Below are positions 3,344 through 39,738 of a stretch of DNA of 64,000 nt, one piece after another (the stretch's first letter is position 1; each line of letters opens with the position of its first letter). A program made the position numbers and the translations under genes. Origin of the DNA: Candidatus Eiseniibacteriota bacterium (GTDB lineage Bacteria > Orphanbacterota > Orphanbacteria > Orphanbacterales > Orphanbacteraceae); NCBI GenBank assembly GCA_016930695.1, contig JAFGGD010000041.1:1-64000 (forward strand), read 5' to 3'. Below the pieces are notes generated by a model, which searched no databases, was not told where the DNA came from, and saw nothing but the letters and a program-made list of their open reading frames with translations.

Positions 3344-5548
3344 TCAGATCCTCTCCAGATTCCCTCCCAGAAGACCGGTCATCCCTTCGTGGTCGAACGG
3401 TCCCATCCGCGCCAACTCCTCCAGATAGGCCGTGATCTCGTCCTCACCCCCGGTGGCGACCCACGGGACGAGATCGAGGAGCACCCTGTCGCGGCCGAGG
3501 CGGTGAATCAGACGAGCGTCACGCTCCGGATCGGACGGTCCCTCCATGCGGAGAACGAAAAGAACCCGTCCGCGGGGATAGAGGGCCGGTTCGCCGAGAC
3601 GCTCCCCGTCGTTCGGATCGACGCGGACGATCGCCCGCGCTCCCGCCGGAAGAAGACCGGGCCACTCCGGGTCCGCGTCGACGAGGAGGCAGGCGCCGGT
3701 TCCGGCGAGTGTTTCGAGCCTTTCCGCGGCGCCGCTGGCGGAGGCGGTGTCCGGCGGCGCCCCATCCCATCGAACGAGACCGAAGCCGAGCGGCCCGAGG
3801 AGCGCGGCGCGCTCGGGAGAGAGAGGGGCGTTCTCTTCGGAGCGGAGGCCGAGCATCAAGGCGCGGGCGCCGTGACGCGAGGCGGACCGCGCCGCGGCGG
3901 GGCCGGCGGCGAGGTCGATGGAATCGGCCTCCCCGGCGCGCAATGTGACCGCCCCGACGCTGTCGAGGAAAACGGGGGACGAGGCTTGTTCCCCATCGAA
4001 CCAACGGACCAGTCCCCTCACGTAACCGGGCGGGGCTCCCTCGACCCGCCCATCCCAATCGACCTGCGTCGACGCGTAGAGGAACGAGCGCCCCGCGCGA
4101 TGTTCGGCCCGAAGCGGCTCCGGCCAATCGGCGACGAAACGAATCCATCGCTCCGCCGTCCGCCCCGCGCCGCCCACGGCGATCGTGTCGATCCAATCGG
4201 CGTCGTCCTGCGGCGTGTGGTAGAAGCGGTGCCCTCCCTCGGTCCAGACGTTCCCCACGGGGATGCCGGCGCGCCGGAAATGCCCGTGGTCGCTCGACAT
4301 ACCGCCCCAGGCGAGCCCGATGGAGAGGGACTCGGCGGCCTCCGGATCGAGGCCCCTCCGGAAGGCGGCGAGGACCTCGGGGTAATACTCGCCCCCGCCG
4401 ATTCCGGACCGTCCGTTCCCCTGCCCCACCATGTCGAAGTTGATCATCAACACCGCGTCGTCCAAATCGACGGGCGGATCGTCGACGAAGGCGTGCGACC
4501 CGATCAGTCCCTGCTCCTCGCCGGCGAAGGTGACGAAGAGCAGGGTGCGCGCCGGGCGCTCTCCCGCCGCCGCGAAGGAACGGGCCAGCTCCATTACCGT
4601 CGCCGAGCCGGAAGCGTTGTCGTCGGCGCCGTTGTAGATCACCCCCTCGGCGTTGGCCCCCACGTGGTCCATGTGGCCGCCGATGATGACGATCTCTCTC
4701 GAGAGAATCGGATCGGCGCCGGGAACGAGCCCCGCCACGTTGCGCGCCTCTCCGCCGGGCAGGCGGCGGACCCTCGCCGAGAAACGGATCTTCTTCCCCG
4801 TCGCGAGGGGGACCGGCCCCTTTTTCAGTTCGTTCTCGTAACGCTGGTGATCGTACCCGGTGTTCTGCAGAAGCAGATCGACGACGCGATCCCCGACGTA
4901 GGCGAGGGGGAGCGCCGGATCGTACACGCCGATCGGTATGGTGGCGCCGAAGATCGGCAGCGCGCGCTGATACCAGAGGACGGCGGCGGCGCCCCGGCGG
5001 CGCGCCTCGGTGAGTGTGGAGTCCCGCCCCGAAGCGCGCTCCCAGTCGTAGCCGTTCTCCGGATGGCCCCGGTGGATCAGCACCATTTTGCCGCGCACGT
5101 CCGTGTCGGCGTAATCGTCCCACTCCCGCGCCGGATCGGAGAGGCCGTGGCCGACGAAGACCACCTCGGCGGTGACTTCGCCGCTCCCCGAGTTCTGGAT
5201 CACCGTGAAGTCGTGTCCCGGCAACAGGACGGACGGAACGCCGAAGGATCGGTCCAGGATCTCCATCGAAGCGGCTTCCTCCACGGTGACGAGCATGGGA
5301 TGGCGATGGAAGAAGGTCCCGTCGCCGCCGGCCGGCACGAGTCCCCACTCCTCGAAACGCGCGGCGACGAACTCCTCGATCCTTCGGCCGTCGGGCGTCC
5401 CGCTCTTTCGCCCGCGGAACTCGTCGGAGGAGATCCGGCCGATGATCGCCATCGCCCTCTCCTCGTCGAAGGAGGACGCGGCGATCGGAAAGAGGAGCGC
5501 CGCGAGAAGAAGAAAAGCGGCGCGGCGCGGTCTGTGGATTCGGTTCAC
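3344..5548 (-). CDS. Secreted M28 family aminopeptidase with PA domain
   Basis: M28 zinc-ligand block NGADDNASGSATVMELARSF plus HMDHVG and GEEQGLIGS. GTG start preceded by AAGGAG; signal peptide VNRIHRPRRAAFLLLAALLFPIAASS. The 937-aa ORF-track entry is over-extended upstream. Confidence 0.9.
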   Translation of the reverse strand: MNRIHRPRRAAFLLLAALLFPIAASSFDEERAMAIIGRISSDEFRGRKSGTPDGRRIEEFVAARFEEWGLVPAGGDGTFFHRHPMLVTVEEAASMEILDRSFGVPSVLLPGHDFTVIQNSGSGEVTAEVVFVGHGLSDPAREWDDYADTDVRGKMVLIHRGHPENGYDWERASGRDSTLTEARRRGAAAVLWYQRALPIFGATIPIGVYDPALPLAYVGDRVVDLLLQNTGYDHQRYENELKKGPVPLATGKKIRFSARVRRLPGGEARNVAGLVPGADPILSREIVIIGGHMDHVGANAEGVIYNGADDNASGSATVMELARSFAAAGERPARTLLFVTFAGEEQGLIGSHAFVDDPPVDLDDAVLMINFDMVGQGNGRSGIGGGEYYPEVLAAFRRGLDPEAAESLSIGLAWGGMSSDHGHFRRAGIPVGNVWTEGGHRFYHTPQDDADWIDTIAVGGAGRTAERWIRFVADWPEPLRAEHRAGRSFLYASTQVDWDGRVEGAPPGYVRGLVRWFDGEQASSPVFLDSVGAVTLRAGEADSIDLAAGPAAARSASRHGARALMLGLRSEENAPLSPERAALLGPLGFGLVRWDGAPPDTASASGAAERLETLAGTGACLLVDADPEWPGLLPAGARAIVRVDPNDGERLGEPALYPRGRVLFVLRMEGPSDPERDARLIHRLGRDRVLLDLVPWVATGGEDEITAYLEELARMGPFDHEGMTGLLGGNLERI

Positions 5549-5628
5549 GTCGTTCTCCTTGCACGGACGGCCGGCGCCGGGGAGACCGGTCCGCGGAACG
5601 CATCGGGGAGAGGGAGCGGCGGCGGGGT

Positions 5629-6192
5629 TCACGCCTCGACGATCCGGTCTCCCTCCACTTTGTAGAGCTTGCCGCAGCAGGAACAGGGTGTTCCCGGATC
5701 CATACGGACGCCGCACTCGCACACCCACCCCCGCACGCGGGCCGGGTTGCCGAAGGCGAGGCCGTGATCCGGCACGTCTCGGGTGACCACCGCGCCGGCG
5801 CCGATCATGGCGTTCCGCCCGATGGTGACGCCGCAGACGATGGTGGCGTTCGCCCCCACCGTGGCTCCCTCCCGGAGGAGCGTCGGCAGGAACCCCTCGG
5901 TTCCCTTCTTCACGCGGCAGCGGGGGAGCATGTCGTTGGTGAGCACCGCGTTCGGCCCGAGGAACACGTAGTCCTCGAGGGTGACTTTCTCCCACACCGA
6001 CACGCCGTTCTTGATGGTGCAGTGGTTCCCGATCACCGCGCCTCCCTCGACGAAGCTGCACTCGCCGATGTTGCAATGCTCGCCGACCACCGCCCCCTTC
6101 ATCACGTGCGCGAACGCCCAGACACGCGTCCCCTTGCCGACCCGGTCGCTCTCGCAAATTCCCTTTTCGTGGACGAAAACGTCTTCGCTCAT
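5629..6192 (-). CDS. Hexapeptide-repeat (left-handed beta-helix) acyl/acetyltransferase, WbbJ/NeuD-like
   Basis: Repeated [LIV]G-x4 hexapeptide motifs (GEHCNIGECSFVEGGAVIGNHCTIKNGVSV...). Start MSEDVFVHEKG has a GGAGAACAAGGA RBS. C-terminal Cys-rich CxCG..CSCCG zinc-ribbon tail. Confidence 0.85.
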   Translation of the reverse strand: MSEDVFVHEKGICESDRVGKGTRVWAFAHVMKGAVVGEHCNIGECSFVEGGAVIGNHCTIKNGVSVWEKVTLEDYVFLGPNAVLTNDMLPRCRVKKGTEGFLPTLLREGATVGANATIVCGVTIGRNAMIGAGAVVTRDVPDHGLAFGNPARVRGWVCECGVRMDPGTPCSCCGKLYKVEGDRIVEA

Positions 6193-21401: not shown

Positions 21402-21789
21402 CTTTTCCTCCTTCGAACGTCGGGTCCGGATTTTCATCCGGCGCCCGCCCCCGAACATGTCCCGCAAGAATCTTCCATTCCTGAAGCATCGCGGCCCAAG
21501 GGATCCTATCAGGCGCCGATGGAGATCGCAAGCCTCGGCCCGCGCCGTCGACTCCTTTACGAGCCCGAGAAGCGGATTATTCAACTCCACGGGAAGGCGG
21601 CGCCGCATCCCGTTTATTCATATTGAGTTGGAAGATAAGCGGGCGCGCGACGGAGAACGCATTATCTTCAGAGGAAGTTTGATACGGTCTGGAAACGAGT
21701 CAAGCATCGCTGAATGGCGGAACGCGCCCCCCCCGGTCGGCCGCTCGGGGCCTGGGAACCGGGAACGGTCCGCAAGAAAGGATGGAACC

Positions 21790-26284: not shown

Positions 26285-26447
26285 CCGGCGCGGCGGACCG
26301 GACGGAACACCCGGGGACCGCGCGCCGGCGCATTTCTTTCAAGTATGGCCCTTTTTTTTTGTAATGTCAAGGAAGAGGGCGCGCCGAGGGGCGCTTCGGG
26401 CGGCGGCAGTGGCGTCGCGCCTCCCGATCCGTTCGTTTCGAAACGTG

Positions 26448-34741: not shown

Positions 34742-35892
34742 TGCGCGCCGTCTTCGCCGTCGCCCGTACCGACTGGACGATCACCCTACGGGACCGCCAG
34801 GCTCTCCTCTGGATGTTCCTGATGCCGGTGCTCTTCATCTTCGTCTTCGGGAACGCCTTCCGCGGAGGCGGGCGGGGGGGAAAACAGCCCCTTCCCGTGC
34901 TGAACGAGGACGATCGTTTTCTCGGGCGGGTGGTGGCCGCCGAGCTGGCGGACTCGACCTGGGCGCCTTACGCCGTGGCGCGCGAAAATTCGGCGTTCGC
35001 GGCGCTCTCCAACTGGATCGAGATCCCCGCGGGATTCACCGACAGCGTCCTCTCCGGCGAACGCTCCACGATCCGCGTAGCGCGGCGCGGCGGCGGCTCC
35101 CCCCTCCGCGAGAGGGGCCACCTGATGAATTCCACTCTGGCGGCGCTCCGCATTCTCTCTCATCTGTACGAGATTCCGGACTCGACCCTTCGAAGCGCGC
35201 CGGACACGGCCCTGGCGGCGCTCTATGATTCTCTCGCGGCGCGCCCGCCGCTGGTGACGCTCCGGAGCCGGCCCGCCTCGGGTATTCATGAGAGGCCCCG
35301 CGGCTTCCTTCTCTCCGTGCCGGGCAACCTGATCATGTTCGTGCTCATCGTCGCGCTCACGGGCGGCGCCGCGCAGATCGCCGTCGAGTCCGCGGGCGGC
35401 CACCTGCGGAGGCTCGGCGCGTCCCCTCTCTCCCGCTTCGAGGTGTTCCTCGGCAAGCTGCTGGGAAAAACGCTGATCGCCGTAACGCAGATCGCGCTTC
35501 TGGTGATCGTCTCCACGTTTCTCTTCGGCATGGAGTGGGGAAGGGATCCTCTGGGGCTCGCGCTTCTTCTTCTCCTCTACGCCGTGGTCGCGGCATCGAT
35601 CGGCTGCTTTCTGGGGCTCTACATACGGCGGCCGGAGACGGCGGCGTCCATCGGTGTGCTGGTCACCCTGGTGATGGCCTCCCTCGGCGGTTGCTGGTGG
35701 CCGCTCGAGATCGTGCCGGACACGATGAAAGCGGTGGGACACATCTTCCCCACCGCCTGGGCGATGGATGGACTGATGAAGCTGGTCGCCTACGACGGCA
35801 CGACCCTCACCATCCTGCCGATGCTCGGGATGCTCGCCGTCTACGCGCTCCTCTTCGCCTTCCTCGCCTCGCGGCTCTTGAAGTTCGATTAA
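34738..35892 (+). CDS. ABC-2 family transporter permease (second subunit)
   Basis: Same architecture as the first permease. ATG overlaps the previous stop (atga). The 533-aa track ORF is over-extended upstream. Confidence 0.8.
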   Translation: MMRAVFAVARTDWTITLRDRQALLWMFLMPVLFIFVFGNAFRGGGRGGKQPLPVLNEDDRFLGRVVAAELADSTWAPYAVARENSAFAALSNWIEIPAGFTDSVLSGERSTIRVARRGGGSPLRERGHLMNSTLAALRILSHLYEIPDSTLRSAPDTALAALYDSLAARPPLVTLRSRPASGIHERPRGFLLSVPGNLIMFVLIVALTGGAAQIAVESAGGHLRRLGASPLSRFEVFLGKLLGKTLIAVTQIALLVIVSTFLFGMEWGRDPLGLALLLLLYAVVAASIGCFLGLYIRRPETAASIGVLVTLVMASLGGCWWPLEIVPDTMKAVGHIFPTAWAMDGLMKLVAYDGTTLTILPMLGMLAVYALLFAFLASRLLKFD

Positions 35893-35940
35893 GGGGAGGA
35901 GCGCCGCTGCCTCTTCCGTGCACGTTCCCGTACTCGCCAA

Positions 35941-36000
35941 TCGCTCTCGCTATCGGGATCGCTATCGGGATCGAAATCGCAATCGAAATCGGCCCCGATA
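35941..36000. repeat. 12-bp periodic minisatellite (gctatcgggatc x2, gaaatcgcaatc, gaaatcggcccc)
   Basis: Read directly. The same GAAATC(N6) motif recurs at 37481-37516 and, reverse-complemented, at 121-146, each time at the border of a repeat element. Confidence 0.6.
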
Positions 36001-36094
36001 GCGATGATAAGCCGTAAACGAGAACGGGAACGCGGCCGGGTCCTGCCCTCCATCCGCCCGCGAAGGGCGCCTGCCATTCGCGCCTTCGCACTCG

Positions 36095-36156
36095 GCACCT
36101 TCGTAACCAGATACCTTTTCGCGAACGGGCGAGAGAAAAGGTATCTGGTTACGAGG
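36095..36156. repeat. 62-bp perfect-hairpin direct repeat, copy A (18-bp stem cgtaaccagatacctttt / aaaaggtatctggttacg, 16-nt loop)
   Basis: Identical to copy B at 37712-37773 in the same orientation. Together they bracket a low-GC cassette. Confidence 0.8.
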
Positions 36157-36229
36157 GCGAGGATTTCATTAGCTAAAAGTAAATTTTCATGCGATAATAA
36201 TTATTAGATTCACCGGACAGGAAAAGAAG

Positions 36230-37439
36230 ATGAATCACCCCCACTTCCATTCCCATGTATGCCGGTTATTTCTCGTCATCCCGCTCCTTTGCGTACTTTT
36301 CGCGGCAGTGACCGCGTCCGGAAGGACGTGGTATGTGCTCCCTGATTCGACAGGTGACGCGCCTGATATTCAGGCAGCGATCGACTCGAGCGGTGATGGA
36401 GACACGGTGCTCGTGGCGGCGGGCACGTACTATGTGAATCTTCAGATCACCGGGATTACCGACTTTACGCTGATCAGCGAATCAGGCCCCGAAGTAACCA
36501 TCCTGGACGGTAGTCCCTCGTTCAATCCGCAATATCGTCAAGTCGTTCGAGTTTTCCAATCCCCAGACGCACTCGTCGAGGGATTCACGATCCAGAATGC
36601 GAACCCAAGTACGATAGCTGGTTGGGGTGGGGGGATAAGGATCATAGGTGGGGGCCGCGTGACGATACGCGGAAACATCATCAGGGCGAACAACAGCAAG
36701 AGCCGTGGCGGTGGGCTGGCCTTTTCAAACCCTTGCGAAGGTTGCGGGGGCAGCGTGATCGAGGGCAACCAGTTTATTGAAAACACGTGCTCCAATAATG
36801 CCGCGGGTATTTGGATCTATGGGGTGGATGACGGGTGTGTTTTTATCAAAAACAACTTATTTCAAGGCAACGTTGGGGGCTATGGAGGGATAAGAGCCGA
36901 ATACTCAAACATTATATTGACCAACAACATATTTATGGCTAACGAGTCGACCTCATACTGTCTTGATATAGTGGGCACAGGTCGAGTGGAGGGAAATCTG
37001 GTTGTCCTGAATGAGGGGGGGGGGGATAGGTGTTGACGAAGGAGTGATCGCCTCGAATACAGTCGTAAGTAATAGCTGGGTTGGGATCAACGCGATGAGT
37101 TGTGAAACATATAATAATTTGTCGGTGGGGAACCAAATGGGCATCGGTACTTGCTACGTCGAGACAATCGTATGTAACAATTCGTGGGGCAATGTTGATT
37201 GGGATTATTATCCTGGTTGCGACTCCTGTGGAATGAATGGAAACATCTGTGTGAATCCCCTTTTCTGTGATCCGGAGAACGGCGACTACTCGATTGCGGA
37301 TGAATCGCCTTGTGCACCGGGGAACTCCGGAGGTTGCGGTCTGATAGGAGCGTTAGATGTGGGGTGCGTGTTCACGTCGGTCCCGATAGCCCGGCGGGAT
37401 ACGACCTCTTGGGGAACGATCAAGAAGATGTTCCGCTGA
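36230..37439 (+). pseudogene. Secreted right-handed parallel beta-helix repeat protein, interrupted or phase-switched by a +1/-1 frameshift at an 11-G homopolymer (37015-37025); frames 36230..37036 and 37011..37439
   Basis: Signal peptide MNHPHFHSHVCRLFLVIPLLCVLFAAVTASG. Beta-helix repeats (GNIIRANNS..GGGL, IEGNQFIENT, IKNNLFQGN, LTNNIFMANES) continue across the frame boundary into the second ORF (NTVVSNSWVGIN...NPLFCDPENGDYSIADESPCAPG). GC content is visibly ~50% against ~70% background, with an AT-rich promoter-like stretch at 36171-36229. Confidence 0.7.
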
Positions 37440-37480
37440 TCCTGCGCACCCCCACACCCTCACTCGATCCCCAATCGCGA

Positions 37481-37590
<110 letters not shown>

Positions 37591-37711
37591 CCGGTATCAC
37601 GGGCATGCATGCATCCCGATCGTCTGGCTGTCCTTGGGGAATCACCCCAGGTCACACGAGAAGGAAGCCCCGACGAAACGGTGAATTCCGTATTGTGTCC
37701 CCGGAATTCAC

Positions 37712-37773
37712 GCACCTTCGTAACCAGATACCTTTTCGCGAACGGGCGAGAGAAAAGGTATCTGGTTACGAGG
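37712..37773. repeat. 62-bp perfect-hairpin direct repeat, copy B
   Basis: Identical to 36095-36156. Lies ~50 bp downstream of the S9 peptidase stop on the minus strand. Confidence 0.8.
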
Positions 37774-37821
37774 AATCCTTCTTGATCTTCGTGTTCTTCG
37801 TGGTGAGATTTTCGCTCCTGA

Positions 37822-39738
37822 TCAAGGAACGTCCTTCCCCATGTGCCGGGCGAGGAAGTCCTCGATCTTCTCCATCAGTTCGATGGTTTTTTTCTCGTCC
37901 GAGAGAGCGTGCCCTTCGCCGGGAATGAGGACATACTCCACGTCCTTGCCCGCCTCCCGGAGGGCGTTCACCATCTCTTCGGATTGACTCATTTTCACAC
38001 GGGGGTCGTTCTCCCCCTGGACGATCAGGATCGGCGCGCGGAACTTGTCGGCGTGGAGGGCTGGCGACGTCTCCGCCATTTGCAGGCTATCCTCGACCGG
38101 GTCCCCCCAGCGTACGCGAATCTCGTCAAGGTAAGGGCCCCAGTAAGCGGGAAAAGATCCGAAGAACGTGAAGTAATTGGAGATCCCCCACATGTCCACG
38201 CCGCAGGCGTAGATCTCGGGCGTGAACGCCATCCCCGCGAGCGCCGCATAGCCGCCGAAACTCCACCCCAGAATGGCGATCCGGTCGGGATCGGCGATCC
38301 CTTGATCGATGAGCCAATGCACGCCGTCGGTGATATCGTCCTGCATCGCCAAGCCCCACTGCTTGAATCCGGCCCGCATGAACGCTTTGCCGTACCCCTC
38401 GGACCCGCGAAAGTTCGGCTGAAAGACGGCGTAGCCCCGGTTGGCGAGAAACTGTGTCTTCGCGTCGAAACCCCAGGAGTTCCGCCACTGCGGCCCGGCG
38501 TGGGGGTGGACGATGAGCGGCAGGTTCTTCGGCTCCGCGCCGGCGGGGATCGTCAGGTAACCGTGGATGAGGAGCCCGTCCCGCGCCTCGTAGCGGATCA
38601 GCCGGGTCTCCGCCATCCGAGCCTCCTCCAACCAGGGAGCGGCGTCCCGCAGGAATTGCAGGTCGTCCGCATTCGCGTCGTAGAGGTAGTACCGCCCCGG
38701 AAGGCGGTCCGAGGTGACGAGCAGGACGAAGCGGTCGGCGTCGTCGTTCCGGGACTCGATCGCGATCTCGTAGTCGCCGAGCCGCTCCCGAAGCCGCCAG
38801 TGCCACGCGGCCATCTCCGGATCGAAGAAGTGGTAGGTCCGCCTCTCTCCCGTGTAGAGCGCGTAGAGGAGCTTCTCCTTCTTCGCGCAATAGTCGAAGA
38901 GATCCCTTTCGTCGTCGCCGAAGGTATCGTACTCGGGATGCTCGAAGAGCACCCGGACCTCGCGCCCCTTCGCCATGTCGTATTCGACGATGGCGATCTT
39001 ATCCCGCCCGACATTGGAGTAGGCGTAAACGTGGTCTTCCTCGGGGGCGAAGAACCAGGGATCGAAGATGTCGTCCGGATCGGTGGTGAGCGTTTCGATG
39101 AACTCCTCCTCCGCGTTCCGCCTGTACATCATGCTCGTTCCGTCGATGATCCGGATCACACCCTCCTCATCCGCCATCCAGGAACGAATATCACCGGGGT
39201 TCTCGAACACCATCTCCATCGCACCGGACCGGGTGTTCAGGCGGTAGAGATCGAAGATCCGCGGATCGCGTTTATTCAGGCCGATCAACATCTCGTCGGG
39301 GCGTTTTTTCAGCCGGCTGACGAGGCGGGTCTTCACGCCGTCGAAGTCGGTGAGGCAGCGGACGGCGCCTTCCTCGATATCCACGGAGTAGAGTTTGTAG
39401 TTCTCGTCCCCCCCGTCGTCCTGGATGTAGAGGAGAAGCTCGTCGTTTCCCCAGGTGAAACGGTTCACGTCCCTCTCGGTGTCGCCGGTCACACGGCGCG
39501 ACTCGCCGGTTCGGATGTCCCTCACGAACAGATTGTCCCGTCCCTGATACACACCGACGAAAGCCAGATGCCGGCCGGAGGGAGAGAGCTTGTATTCCGT
39601 CTCTTCCGGGTGGCGGAAGAAGTCCCGGATCGGGATTTTTCGCGCGGCGGCGACTCTCGGGGCGTCGGAGGCGCAGGCGGCGATAAAGAGAAAAAGGAGA
39701 GCGAGAACGATCGGCGGAATGCTGCCCGTGCGGCGCAT
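37822..39738 (-). CDS. S9 family prolyl oligopeptidase/dipeptidyl-peptidase lipoprotein (beta-propeller + alpha/beta hydrolase)
   Basis: Catalytic Ser motif GWSFGGY, with downstream D and H (PGEGHAL). Lipobox LFLFIAACAS, RBS GGAGGGAC. The 112-aa upstream part of the track ORF is non-coding. Confidence 0.9.
   Translation of the reverse strand: MRRTGSIPPIVLALLFLFIAACASDAPRVAAARKIPIRDFFRHPEETEYKLSPSGRHLAFVGVYQGRDNLFVRDIRTGESRRVTGDTERDVNRFTWGNDELLLYIQDDGGDENYKLYSVDIEEGAVRCLTDFDGVKTRLVSRLKKRPDEMLIGLNKRDPRIFDLYRLNTRSGAMEMVFENPGDIRSWMADEEGVIRIIDGTSMMYRRNAEEEFIETLTTDPDDIFDPWFFAPEEDHVYAYSNVGRDKIAIVEYDMAKGREVRVLFEHPEYDTFGDDERDLFDYCAKKEKLLYALYTGERRTYHFFDPEMAAWHWRLRERLGDYEIAIESRNDDADRFVLLVTSDRLPGRYYLYDANADDLQFLRDAAPWLEEARMAETRLIRYEARDGLLIHGYLTIPAGAEPKNLPLIVHPHAGPQWRNSWGFDAKTQFLANRGYAVFQPNFRGSEGYGKAFMRAGFKQWGLAMQDDITDGVHWLIDQGIADPDRIAILGWSFGGYAALAGMAFTPEIYACGVDMWGISNYFTFFGSFPAYWGPYLDEIRVRWGDPVEDSLQMAETSPALHADKFRAPILIVQGENDPRVKMSQSEEMVNALREAGKDVEYVLIPGEGHALSDEKKTIELMEKIEDFLARHMGKDVP

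Follow-up and report, generated by a model that had tools for sequence, protein, structure and literature searches.

A G11 homopolymer splits a beta-helix protein gene of an uncultured Eiseniibacteriota bacterium, probably through a recent and reversible slippage frameshift

We analysed a 64,000-nucleotide stretch of DNA from a Candidatus Eiseniibacteriota bacterium (GenBank assembly GCA_016930695.1, contig JAFGGD010000041.1, positions 1 to 64,000 of the forward strand; hereafter the window), in which a gene for a right-handed parallel beta-helix protein is split between two reading frames at a run of 11 consecutive G residues. Based on the reading frames, the homologous proteins and two assemblies, we consider it probable (roughly 0.6) that the split is a real, incidental and recent slippage frameshift that can be reversed by mutation, i.e., an OFF allele or a young pseudogene, and not a switch shaped by selection. 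An earlier reading of the sequence alone had proposed a classic slipped-strand contingency locus in an adhesin-like gene, with a sequencing error as the alternative.

The G11 tract and the gene it divides

The uninterrupted G11 tract lies at positions 37015–37025 on the forward strand and is the longest homopolymer of the window, the next longest being a T9 run (26352–26360), a G8 run (2506–2513) and two C8 runs (2856–2863 and 21727–21734). Two open reading frames (ORFs) on the forward strand, one of 268 aa (36230..37036) and one of 142 aa (37011..37439), overlap across the tract, the second in the +1 frame. Coordinates and ORFs thus agree with the sequence-only reading in making the tract the exact junction of two frames of a single gene. 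The same reading had held that either G10 or G12 would fuse the frames into a secreted protein of about 400 aa. When the tract was replaced in silico, G10 did yield a single 402-aa ORF, whereas G12 gave a 266-aa truncation; the second fusing length is G13, with 403 aa. G11 itself gives 268 aa and G9 gives 265 aa. The in-frame tract lengths are G7, G10, G13 and so on, such that one length in three is ON.

In the G10 state the tract would read GAG GGG GGG GGG, which encodes the E-G-G-G of the beta-helix rung motif N-E-G-G-G-I. Because the G10 reading, NLVVLNEGGGIGVDEG (NEGGGIGV), aligns without gaps across the junction to homologues such as the closest one, P0002, with NLLYGNEGGGIAVDNG (NEGGGIAV), the alignment places the ancestral in-frame state at G10 and identifies the present sequence as G10 plus one G. 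The junction peptide of the fused reading is NEGGGIGVDEGVIASNTVVSNSWVGINAMSCETYNNLSVGNQ. In the sequence as deposited, the upstream ORF instead ends in an out-of-frame D-R-C followed by TGA, giving the truncated product the C-terminus NEGGGDRC.

The upstream ORF encodes a signal-peptide-like N-terminus and approximately two thirds of the beta-helix, and its 268-aa product is identical to MBN1826574.1, recorded as a ‘right-handed parallel beta-helix repeat-containing protein’ on an 87-kb contig of a Candidatus Eisenbacteria metagenome-assembled genome (MAG). From position 37026 onward the downstream ORF encodes the final beta-helix rungs, a Cys-rich C-terminal region and a conserved tail, SWGxIKxxFR. 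Separate translation of this ORF appears unlikely, because its ATG at 37011 is not preceded by a Shine-Dalgarno-like sequence and its product has no signal peptide. Ten full-length homologues (393–411 aa, 43–53% identity, 92–98% coverage of the fused sequence), drawn from Eisenbacteria MAGs and metagenome contigs without a stated taxon, align across the junction.

Residues 1–31 (36230..36322, forward strand) begin basic and rich in His, continue with the hydrophobic core LFLVIPLLCVLFAAV and reach T-A-S ahead of the conserved RTWYVLPDSTGDAP, with which the mature protein would start. Judged from the sequence and the homologue alignment, this segment looks like a Sec signal peptide that ends just before the invariant RTWYVLPDSTGDAP; AlphaFold2 places a helix of low predicted local distance difference test score (pLDDT) at residues 12–25. 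Shortening the tract to G10 would restore the full length of about 400 aa, and secretion is predicted from this N-terminus.

Reality and age of the break

The Logan assembly of run SRR13394437, which was made separately from the MAG assembly and probably from the MAG’s own reads, contains a 1390-bp contig that is identical to window positions 36127–37516, G11 included. The contig ends within the repeats that flank the gene, as expected of a short-read de Bruijn assembly. The approximately 55 other genes of the window are long ORFs with a high GC content at third codon positions (GC3) and full-length domain matches. Because none of them is broken and the other coding runs of eight residues are in frame (the T9 run is intergenic), a general homopolymer-error problem in the assembly is ruled out. 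It is not due to chance that the one broken gene of the window is interrupted precisely where the window has its longest homopolymer.

The downstream half of the gene is as conserved as the upstream half. The ratio of C-terminal to N-terminal identity to the homologues is 1.08, compared with 1.13 ± 0.12 for intact pairs, and no secondary lesions were seen in the broken gene. By this comparison the break would be recent, reversible, bypassed or artefactual. Because the separate assembly also gives G11, the other genes are intact and the downstream half is equally conserved, the break is probably both real and recent.

Two other members of the family are also damaged. In P0013 (L011 2501–3722; also L012 and L013) the gene is split into 303 and 118 aa, with the second part in the +1 frame, at a T6 run (L011 3369–3374), and three separate ENA assemblies show the identical split. 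A second type of decay occurs in P0012 (L014 183–1308), in which a deletion between GIGTC and SIAAESPCAP has removed approximately 55 codons and altered the frame. Because of the damage to these two members, the family appears to be dispensable and prone to decay. Further candidate frameshifts in three loci (L066, L076 and L091), obtained by multi-frame tblastn, were ambiguous, with masked bases or divergent sequence and no homopolymer, and were not used.

The course of events that we favour would begin with one Gly-Gly-Gly rung motif that happened to be spelt GAG GGG GGG GGG, creating a G10 run by chance. Slipped-strand mispairing at replication would then have added one G, and in the dominant genotype of the sampled population the frame would be lost after residue 265, with a stop three codons on. 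The resulting 268-aa product would lack the last three or so rungs of the helix, the Cys-rich C-terminal region and the SWGxIKxxFR tail, and would most likely be non-functional. Since the tract would still be prone to slippage, a minority of cells should revert to G10 and hence to ON, and slippage of RNA polymerase or of the ribosome on the run may yield traces of the full-length protein.

Tracts of this length slip at high rates where slippage has been measured. Poly-G tracts of Campylobacter jejuni change from G10 to G11 at 3.7e-4 and from G11 to G10 at 3.9e-3 per division, and the intragenic G11 of capA switches at ~1.6e-3 per division (PMC3401435). In mismatch-repair-proficient meningococci, tracts of G10 and G12 show phase-variation frequencies of 1-3e-5 (PMC3401435). 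By analogy, reversion at the scale of a population is plausible here.

Several points weigh against a real, incidental frameshift. (i) Both assemblies probably derive from one read set, so that G11 is a majority call and not proof of the true template. (ii) Illumina indel error climbs at long homopolymers and in GC-rich sequence (PMC4719071). (iii) The collections searched hold no relative closer than 52% identity, which makes a comparison of tract length across strains impossible. (iv) With a bias like that of C. jejuni, in which deletions at G11 are far more frequent than insertions, a neutral population would be expected to drift to G10. (v) Under such a bias, a G11 majority would hint at a recent sweep, at selection for the OFF state, or at low slippage with active mismatch repair. 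No mismatch-repair gene (mutS or mutL) was found among the neighbouring genes and the largest ORFs scanned in the window.

The alternative that survives best, which we nevertheless hold to be doubtful, is that the extra G is an artefact of sequencing, PCR or assembly. The true template would then be G10 (or G13), the gene would be intact, and polymerase stutter or base-calling would account for the additional residue. The position of the break at the longest homopolymer of the window speaks for this explanation, as do the rise in Illumina indel error noted above and the perfectly intact, equally conserved halves that an artefact predicts. The JAFG ‘Zod_Metabat’ MAGs, which share their accession prefix with this assembly, were obtained from PCR-based Nextera XT libraries sequenced on a HiSeq 2500 and assembled with MEGAHIT (PMC8248873), and the similarity of accession series suggests that the present MAG may belong with them; a literature search for run SRR13394437 gave no result. 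However, G11 was obtained with two different assemblers and must therefore be present in most reads. Homopolymer errors of short reads and stutter in vitro usually affect a minority of the reads and tend towards contraction, whereas this case calls for an expansion, which it would be unusual for most reads to carry. Moreover, there is no further homopolymer-linked break among the approximately 55 genes and 20 runs of 7–9 residues, and the family contains a genuine frameshift at a mere T6 run, seen alike in three assemblies. The two assemblies do not disagree, and there are not several homopolymer-linked breaks, which lowers the chance of an artefact at this site. Sequencing error is thus weakened as an explanation by the identical separate assembly and the absence of other broken genes, yet it retains a minor but appreciable share of the probability.

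Chance origin of the tract

Compared with simulated sequences, a tract of this kind is not exceptional. At least one G11 or C11 run occurred in 23 of 100 dinucleotide-preserving shuffles of the window, the GC content of which is 65.7%, with a mean of 0.38 runs. Synonymous resampling of the codons of this protein, using either the gene’s own or the host’s codon usage, produced a G-run of at least 10 in approximately 14% of trials. Such runs arise because the protein includes Gly-Gly-Gly motifs at four places; of its 56 Gly codons, 17 are GGG, more than any other. The closest homologue, P0002, codes the same E-G-G-G as GAA GGT GGA GGG, and in four close homologues (P0002, P0003, P0006 and P0007) runs do not exceed 6 anywhere in the gene.

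A survey of 80 related loci from GTDB representative genomes gave the same picture for the family. In 115 kb of family coding DNA there were only seven runs of at least 8, each of them G on the coding strand and each specifying a GGG rung motif with I, A or V as the next residue. The intact L034 gene, a family member from an Eiseniibacteriota MAG, carries both a G9 (2840–2848) and a G10 (2920–2929) in frame, each in a GGG-I rung motif, which shows that the G10 ON state is tolerated. Taken together, the shuffles, the resampling, the lack of conservation and the family survey show that long G-runs arise as a side effect of a Gly-rich structural motif in genomes of high GC content. The tract itself is explained by chance, and nothing marks it as an evolved contingency element.

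We therefore regard it as unlikely that the locus is an adaptive contingency locus, as the sequence-only reading had proposed. Selection would then keep both ON (G10 or G13) and OFF (G11 or G12) cells for a secreted or surface glycan-active protein, perhaps for escape from phages or predators or to save cost, and the assembly would have caught the OFF state. Several observations are compatible with such a switch. The tract lies within a coding sequence, its length is in the range of proven switches such as capA of C. jejuni (for contingency loci, approximately 7–8 or more G/C residues are needed), and a change in its length toggles a full-length and a truncated product. The signal-peptide-like N-terminus, the conserved tail and a predicted fold resembling that of glycan enzymes may hint at a surface or secreted determinant, and this putatively exported product is encoded in a low-GC, repeat-flanked accessory island. 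Both halves of the gene are intact despite the OFF state, and, besides the two runs of L034, there is an in-frame G9 in P0013 (L011 3316–3324; V-G-G-G-D) only about eight codons from the position of the G11 tract.

On the other hand, the tract neither exceeds what composition and codon usage lead one to expect nor is conserved in orthologues, and long runs are not enriched in the family, where every run of at least 8 stems from the GGG motif. It is located two thirds of the way into the gene and not near the 5' end. In the collections searched we found no length polymorphism: an exact-flank search of JGI metagenome contigs for tract-length variants gave no match, and an exact look-up in a collection of 15 billion proteins, covering the fused 402- and 403-aa forms, the G12 and G9 truncations and alternative downstream starts, recovered only the 268- and 142-aa products. 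The source genome is absent from the GTDB species representatives, a scan of which gave no relative above 48% identity. Other family members carry lesions that are not reversible, which fits a dispensable, decaying family. It is correspondingly improbable that a selected contingency locus of free-living, uncultured Eisenbacteria is at work, in which poly-G slippage toggles a secreted glycan-active beta-helix protein with a hitherto undescribed SWGxIKxxFR tail and the GGG rung is reused as a mutable tract, as the G9 of P0013 and the G9 and G10 of L034 might suggest.

The intragenic poly-G loci of C. jejuni, of which capA is an example, resemble the present locus in having a tract of G10–11 inside the frame of an exported protein, where one-base changes toggle full-length and truncated forms. 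They differ in that polymorphism and switching rates have been measured in C. jejuni, the AT-rich genome of which has approximately 29 such tracts, far from chance expectation and recurring across strains, and lacks MutS and MutL. The locus described here lies in DNA of 66% GC, where the run is expected by chance, and the run is missing from the homologues.

Programmed recoding, in which the full-length protein would be made from the G11 DNA either by +1 ribosomal frameshifting, with tRNA-Gly re-pairing from GGG to GGG, or by transcriptional slippage to G10 mRNAs, is very unlikely because the tract is not surrounded by stimulatory RNA structure (z = +0.6), no Rfam family occurs in 35500–38300 and the break is not conserved, ten close homologues being single ORFs and P0013 breaking at another position and another base. 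The downstream ORF does lie in the +1 frame, the run permits perfect re-pairing after a slip of one base, P0013 is likewise split into the +1 frame at a homopolymer, and the downstream half shows no decay; however, the slip site has neither a prfB-type in-frame stop nor an upstream Shine-Dalgarno-like stimulator, and programmed frameshifting was rejected as the main explanation. Transcriptional slippage is known to rescue homopolymer frameshifts at poly-A tracts in insect endosymbionts, and it is also known from dnaX and insertion sequence elements. A run that fills the RNA–DNA hybrid could here, too, give transcripts that are one base shorter and restore the frame. However, productive transcriptional slippage in bacteria has been documented mainly at A/T runs, and G/C hybrids are more stable.

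The beta-helix family, its surroundings and implications

With the homologue alignment as input, AlphaFold2 predicts a right-handed beta-helix of regular short strands, with pLDDT above 90 over most of residues 50–300. The tract corresponds to residues 263–265, in the middle of the beta-helix (pLDDT >90), and is followed by approximately 65 well-modelled residues and then by the low-confidence Cys-rich C-terminal region and tail. The best Foldseek matches in the PDB are chondroitinase B and alginate lyases of polysaccharide lyase family 6 (PL6), Vibrio RbmB, phage tailspikes and the epimerases AlgE and AlgG, with a probability of 1.00 for the PL6 lyases, RbmB, the tailspikes and AlgE, TM-scores of 0.4–0.5 and sequence identities of 11–17%. 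In an hmmscan search the fused protein has no Beta_helix match at E values up to 1 and only a weak match to DUF5123, and its matches to the NCBIfam profiles NosD and para_beta_helix are below threshold; precomputed annotation assigns PF13229 to the 268-aa product and most homologues. The model and the Foldseek matches both have the right-handed parallel beta-helix fold.

The predicted fold is like that of glycan-active beta-helix enzymes and not that of an adhesin, and the description of the gene as adhesin-like was not borne out. An autotransporter or two-partner-secretion adhesin was considered and rejected: the protein has only 402 aa, and no autotransporter, two-partner-secretion or haemagglutinin domain was found in Pfam or NCBIfam. 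No adhesin passengers are among the 50 best PDB fold matches listed. With the right-handed parallel beta-helix class (pectate-lyase-like or CASH; PF13229, NosD PF05048) the protein shares a single predicted helix of approximately 300 residues and a signal-peptide-like N-terminus. It differs from the glycan-active members in its low identity and TM-scores, in that no catalytic residues have been identified in it, and in a Cys-rich C-terminal region and an SWGxIKxxFR tail that are particular to its family and unmatched by Pfam and NCBIfam models. In the reading that we favour, the gene would encode a secreted beta-helix protein of approximately 400 aa, from a family that is common in Eisenbacteria and neighbouring candidate phyla.

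The extreme C-terminal tail, S-W-G-T-I-K-K-M-F-R (37407..37436, forward strand), was delimited from the alignment, the codons and a survey of relatives. Its consensus, [S/T]-W-[G/S]-x-[I/L/V]-K-x-x-[F/Y]-[R/K]-COOH, forms the exact end of 73 of the 121 relatives retrieved, including P0002–P0011, and the tail-bearing relatives come from MAGs of Eisenbacteria, Krumholzibacteria and Latescibacteria. Pfam and NCBIfam contain no model that matches the motif, and searching the literature for a C-terminal WGxIK motif returned irrelevant matches only. The tail may be an unrecognised sorting or anchoring tag, and the frameshift strips it from the 268-aa product. At least three ORFs outside the family match end in a similar way (L014 1309–1878; L064 917–1579, reverse strand; L069 115–1002).

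In composition the beta-helix gene is an outlier, with 52% GC compared with 66% for the window and a GC3 of 0.59 compared with 0.66–0.91 in the other ORFs. It is the only gene in the 1.9 kb that separate an ABC transporter operon from a convergent peptidase S9 gene, and it is preceded by an AT-rich 5' leader or promoter region (36157..36229, forward strand) that was recognised by sequence and composition and contains no consensus sigma-70 promoter match. The low-GC gene is bracketed by two 100% identical copies of a perfect 62-nt palindromic element with a 23-bp stem. The left copy (36095..36156; RNA fold -45 kcal/mol, z = -10) lies 203 nt past the stop of the ABC-2 permease gene; the right copy (37712..37773; RNA fold -35 kcal/mol, z = -6) follows the stop of the convergent peptidase S9 gene at a distance of 48 nt. 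The rest of the window contains no further copy, and none was found in the other 93 loci or among JGI contigs. With just two copies and no integrase nearby, the palindromes were rejected as a pervasive repetitive extragenic palindromic element or an integron attC site; they could be terminators, insulators or the ends of an inserted cassette.

The repeat search also detected tandem 6/12-nt ‘ATCGNN’ repeats on the left (35935..36003) and on the right (37463..37519), the order of tandem repeats and 62-nt element being the same on both sides. In 37518..37709, a 37-nt unit occurs in perfect tandem (37518–37591), with a 25-nt inverted copy (37685–37709) approximately 100 nt downstream of it, an arrangement that resembles a miniature inverted-repeat transposable element or what is left of a repeat element.

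Homologues in four other genomes or contigs (L002, L003, L009 and L010) likewise have a GC content below that of their flanks and lie in differing genomic contexts, and two of the four loci adjoin repeat arrays or inverted repeats. Because of their low GC relative to the flanks and their differing contexts, the comparison suggests an accessory and possibly mobile gene family that moves horizontally. In L003 the homologue is followed by six overlapping, imperfect (61–92%) repeat copies at a spacing of 53 nt (5193–5788). The L009 homologue, from another Eisenbacteria MAG, lies between 38-nt inverted repeats (2618–2655 and 4415–4452; 92% complementary) and has, upstream, a C10 run (2964–2975) in a repeated element.

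Homopolymer frameshift pseudogenes are among the closest known phenomena, and P0013 with its T6 break provides an example within the family. In both, a one-base change splits an otherwise intact gene into overlapping ORFs, in a multi-copy accessory family with other broken members. The difference is that reverse mutation at G11 is orders of magnitude likelier than at a short run, so that the inactivation would be effectively reversible at population scale. The locus is best filed as a mutation-revertible homopolymer frameshift allele of a beta-helix family gene, i.e., a new instance of a well-known phenomenon.

One consequence concerns annotation: the 268-aa fragment is deposited as if it were a normal protein and the 142-aa remainder lacks a protein entry of its own, although the locus is better treated as one frameshifted gene. 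The C-terminal tail common to a large protein family is the more broadly useful by-product of the analysis. If reads showed structured heterogeneity in tract length, phase variation at simple sequence repeats, which has been studied mostly in host-associated pathogens, would be extended to an uncultured sediment lineage. Should the G11 allele be real, it offers a small, clean example of how GC-rich genomes make slippage-prone runs through Gly-Gly-Gly motifs, and of how accessory genes for exported proteins can flicker or decay through such runs.

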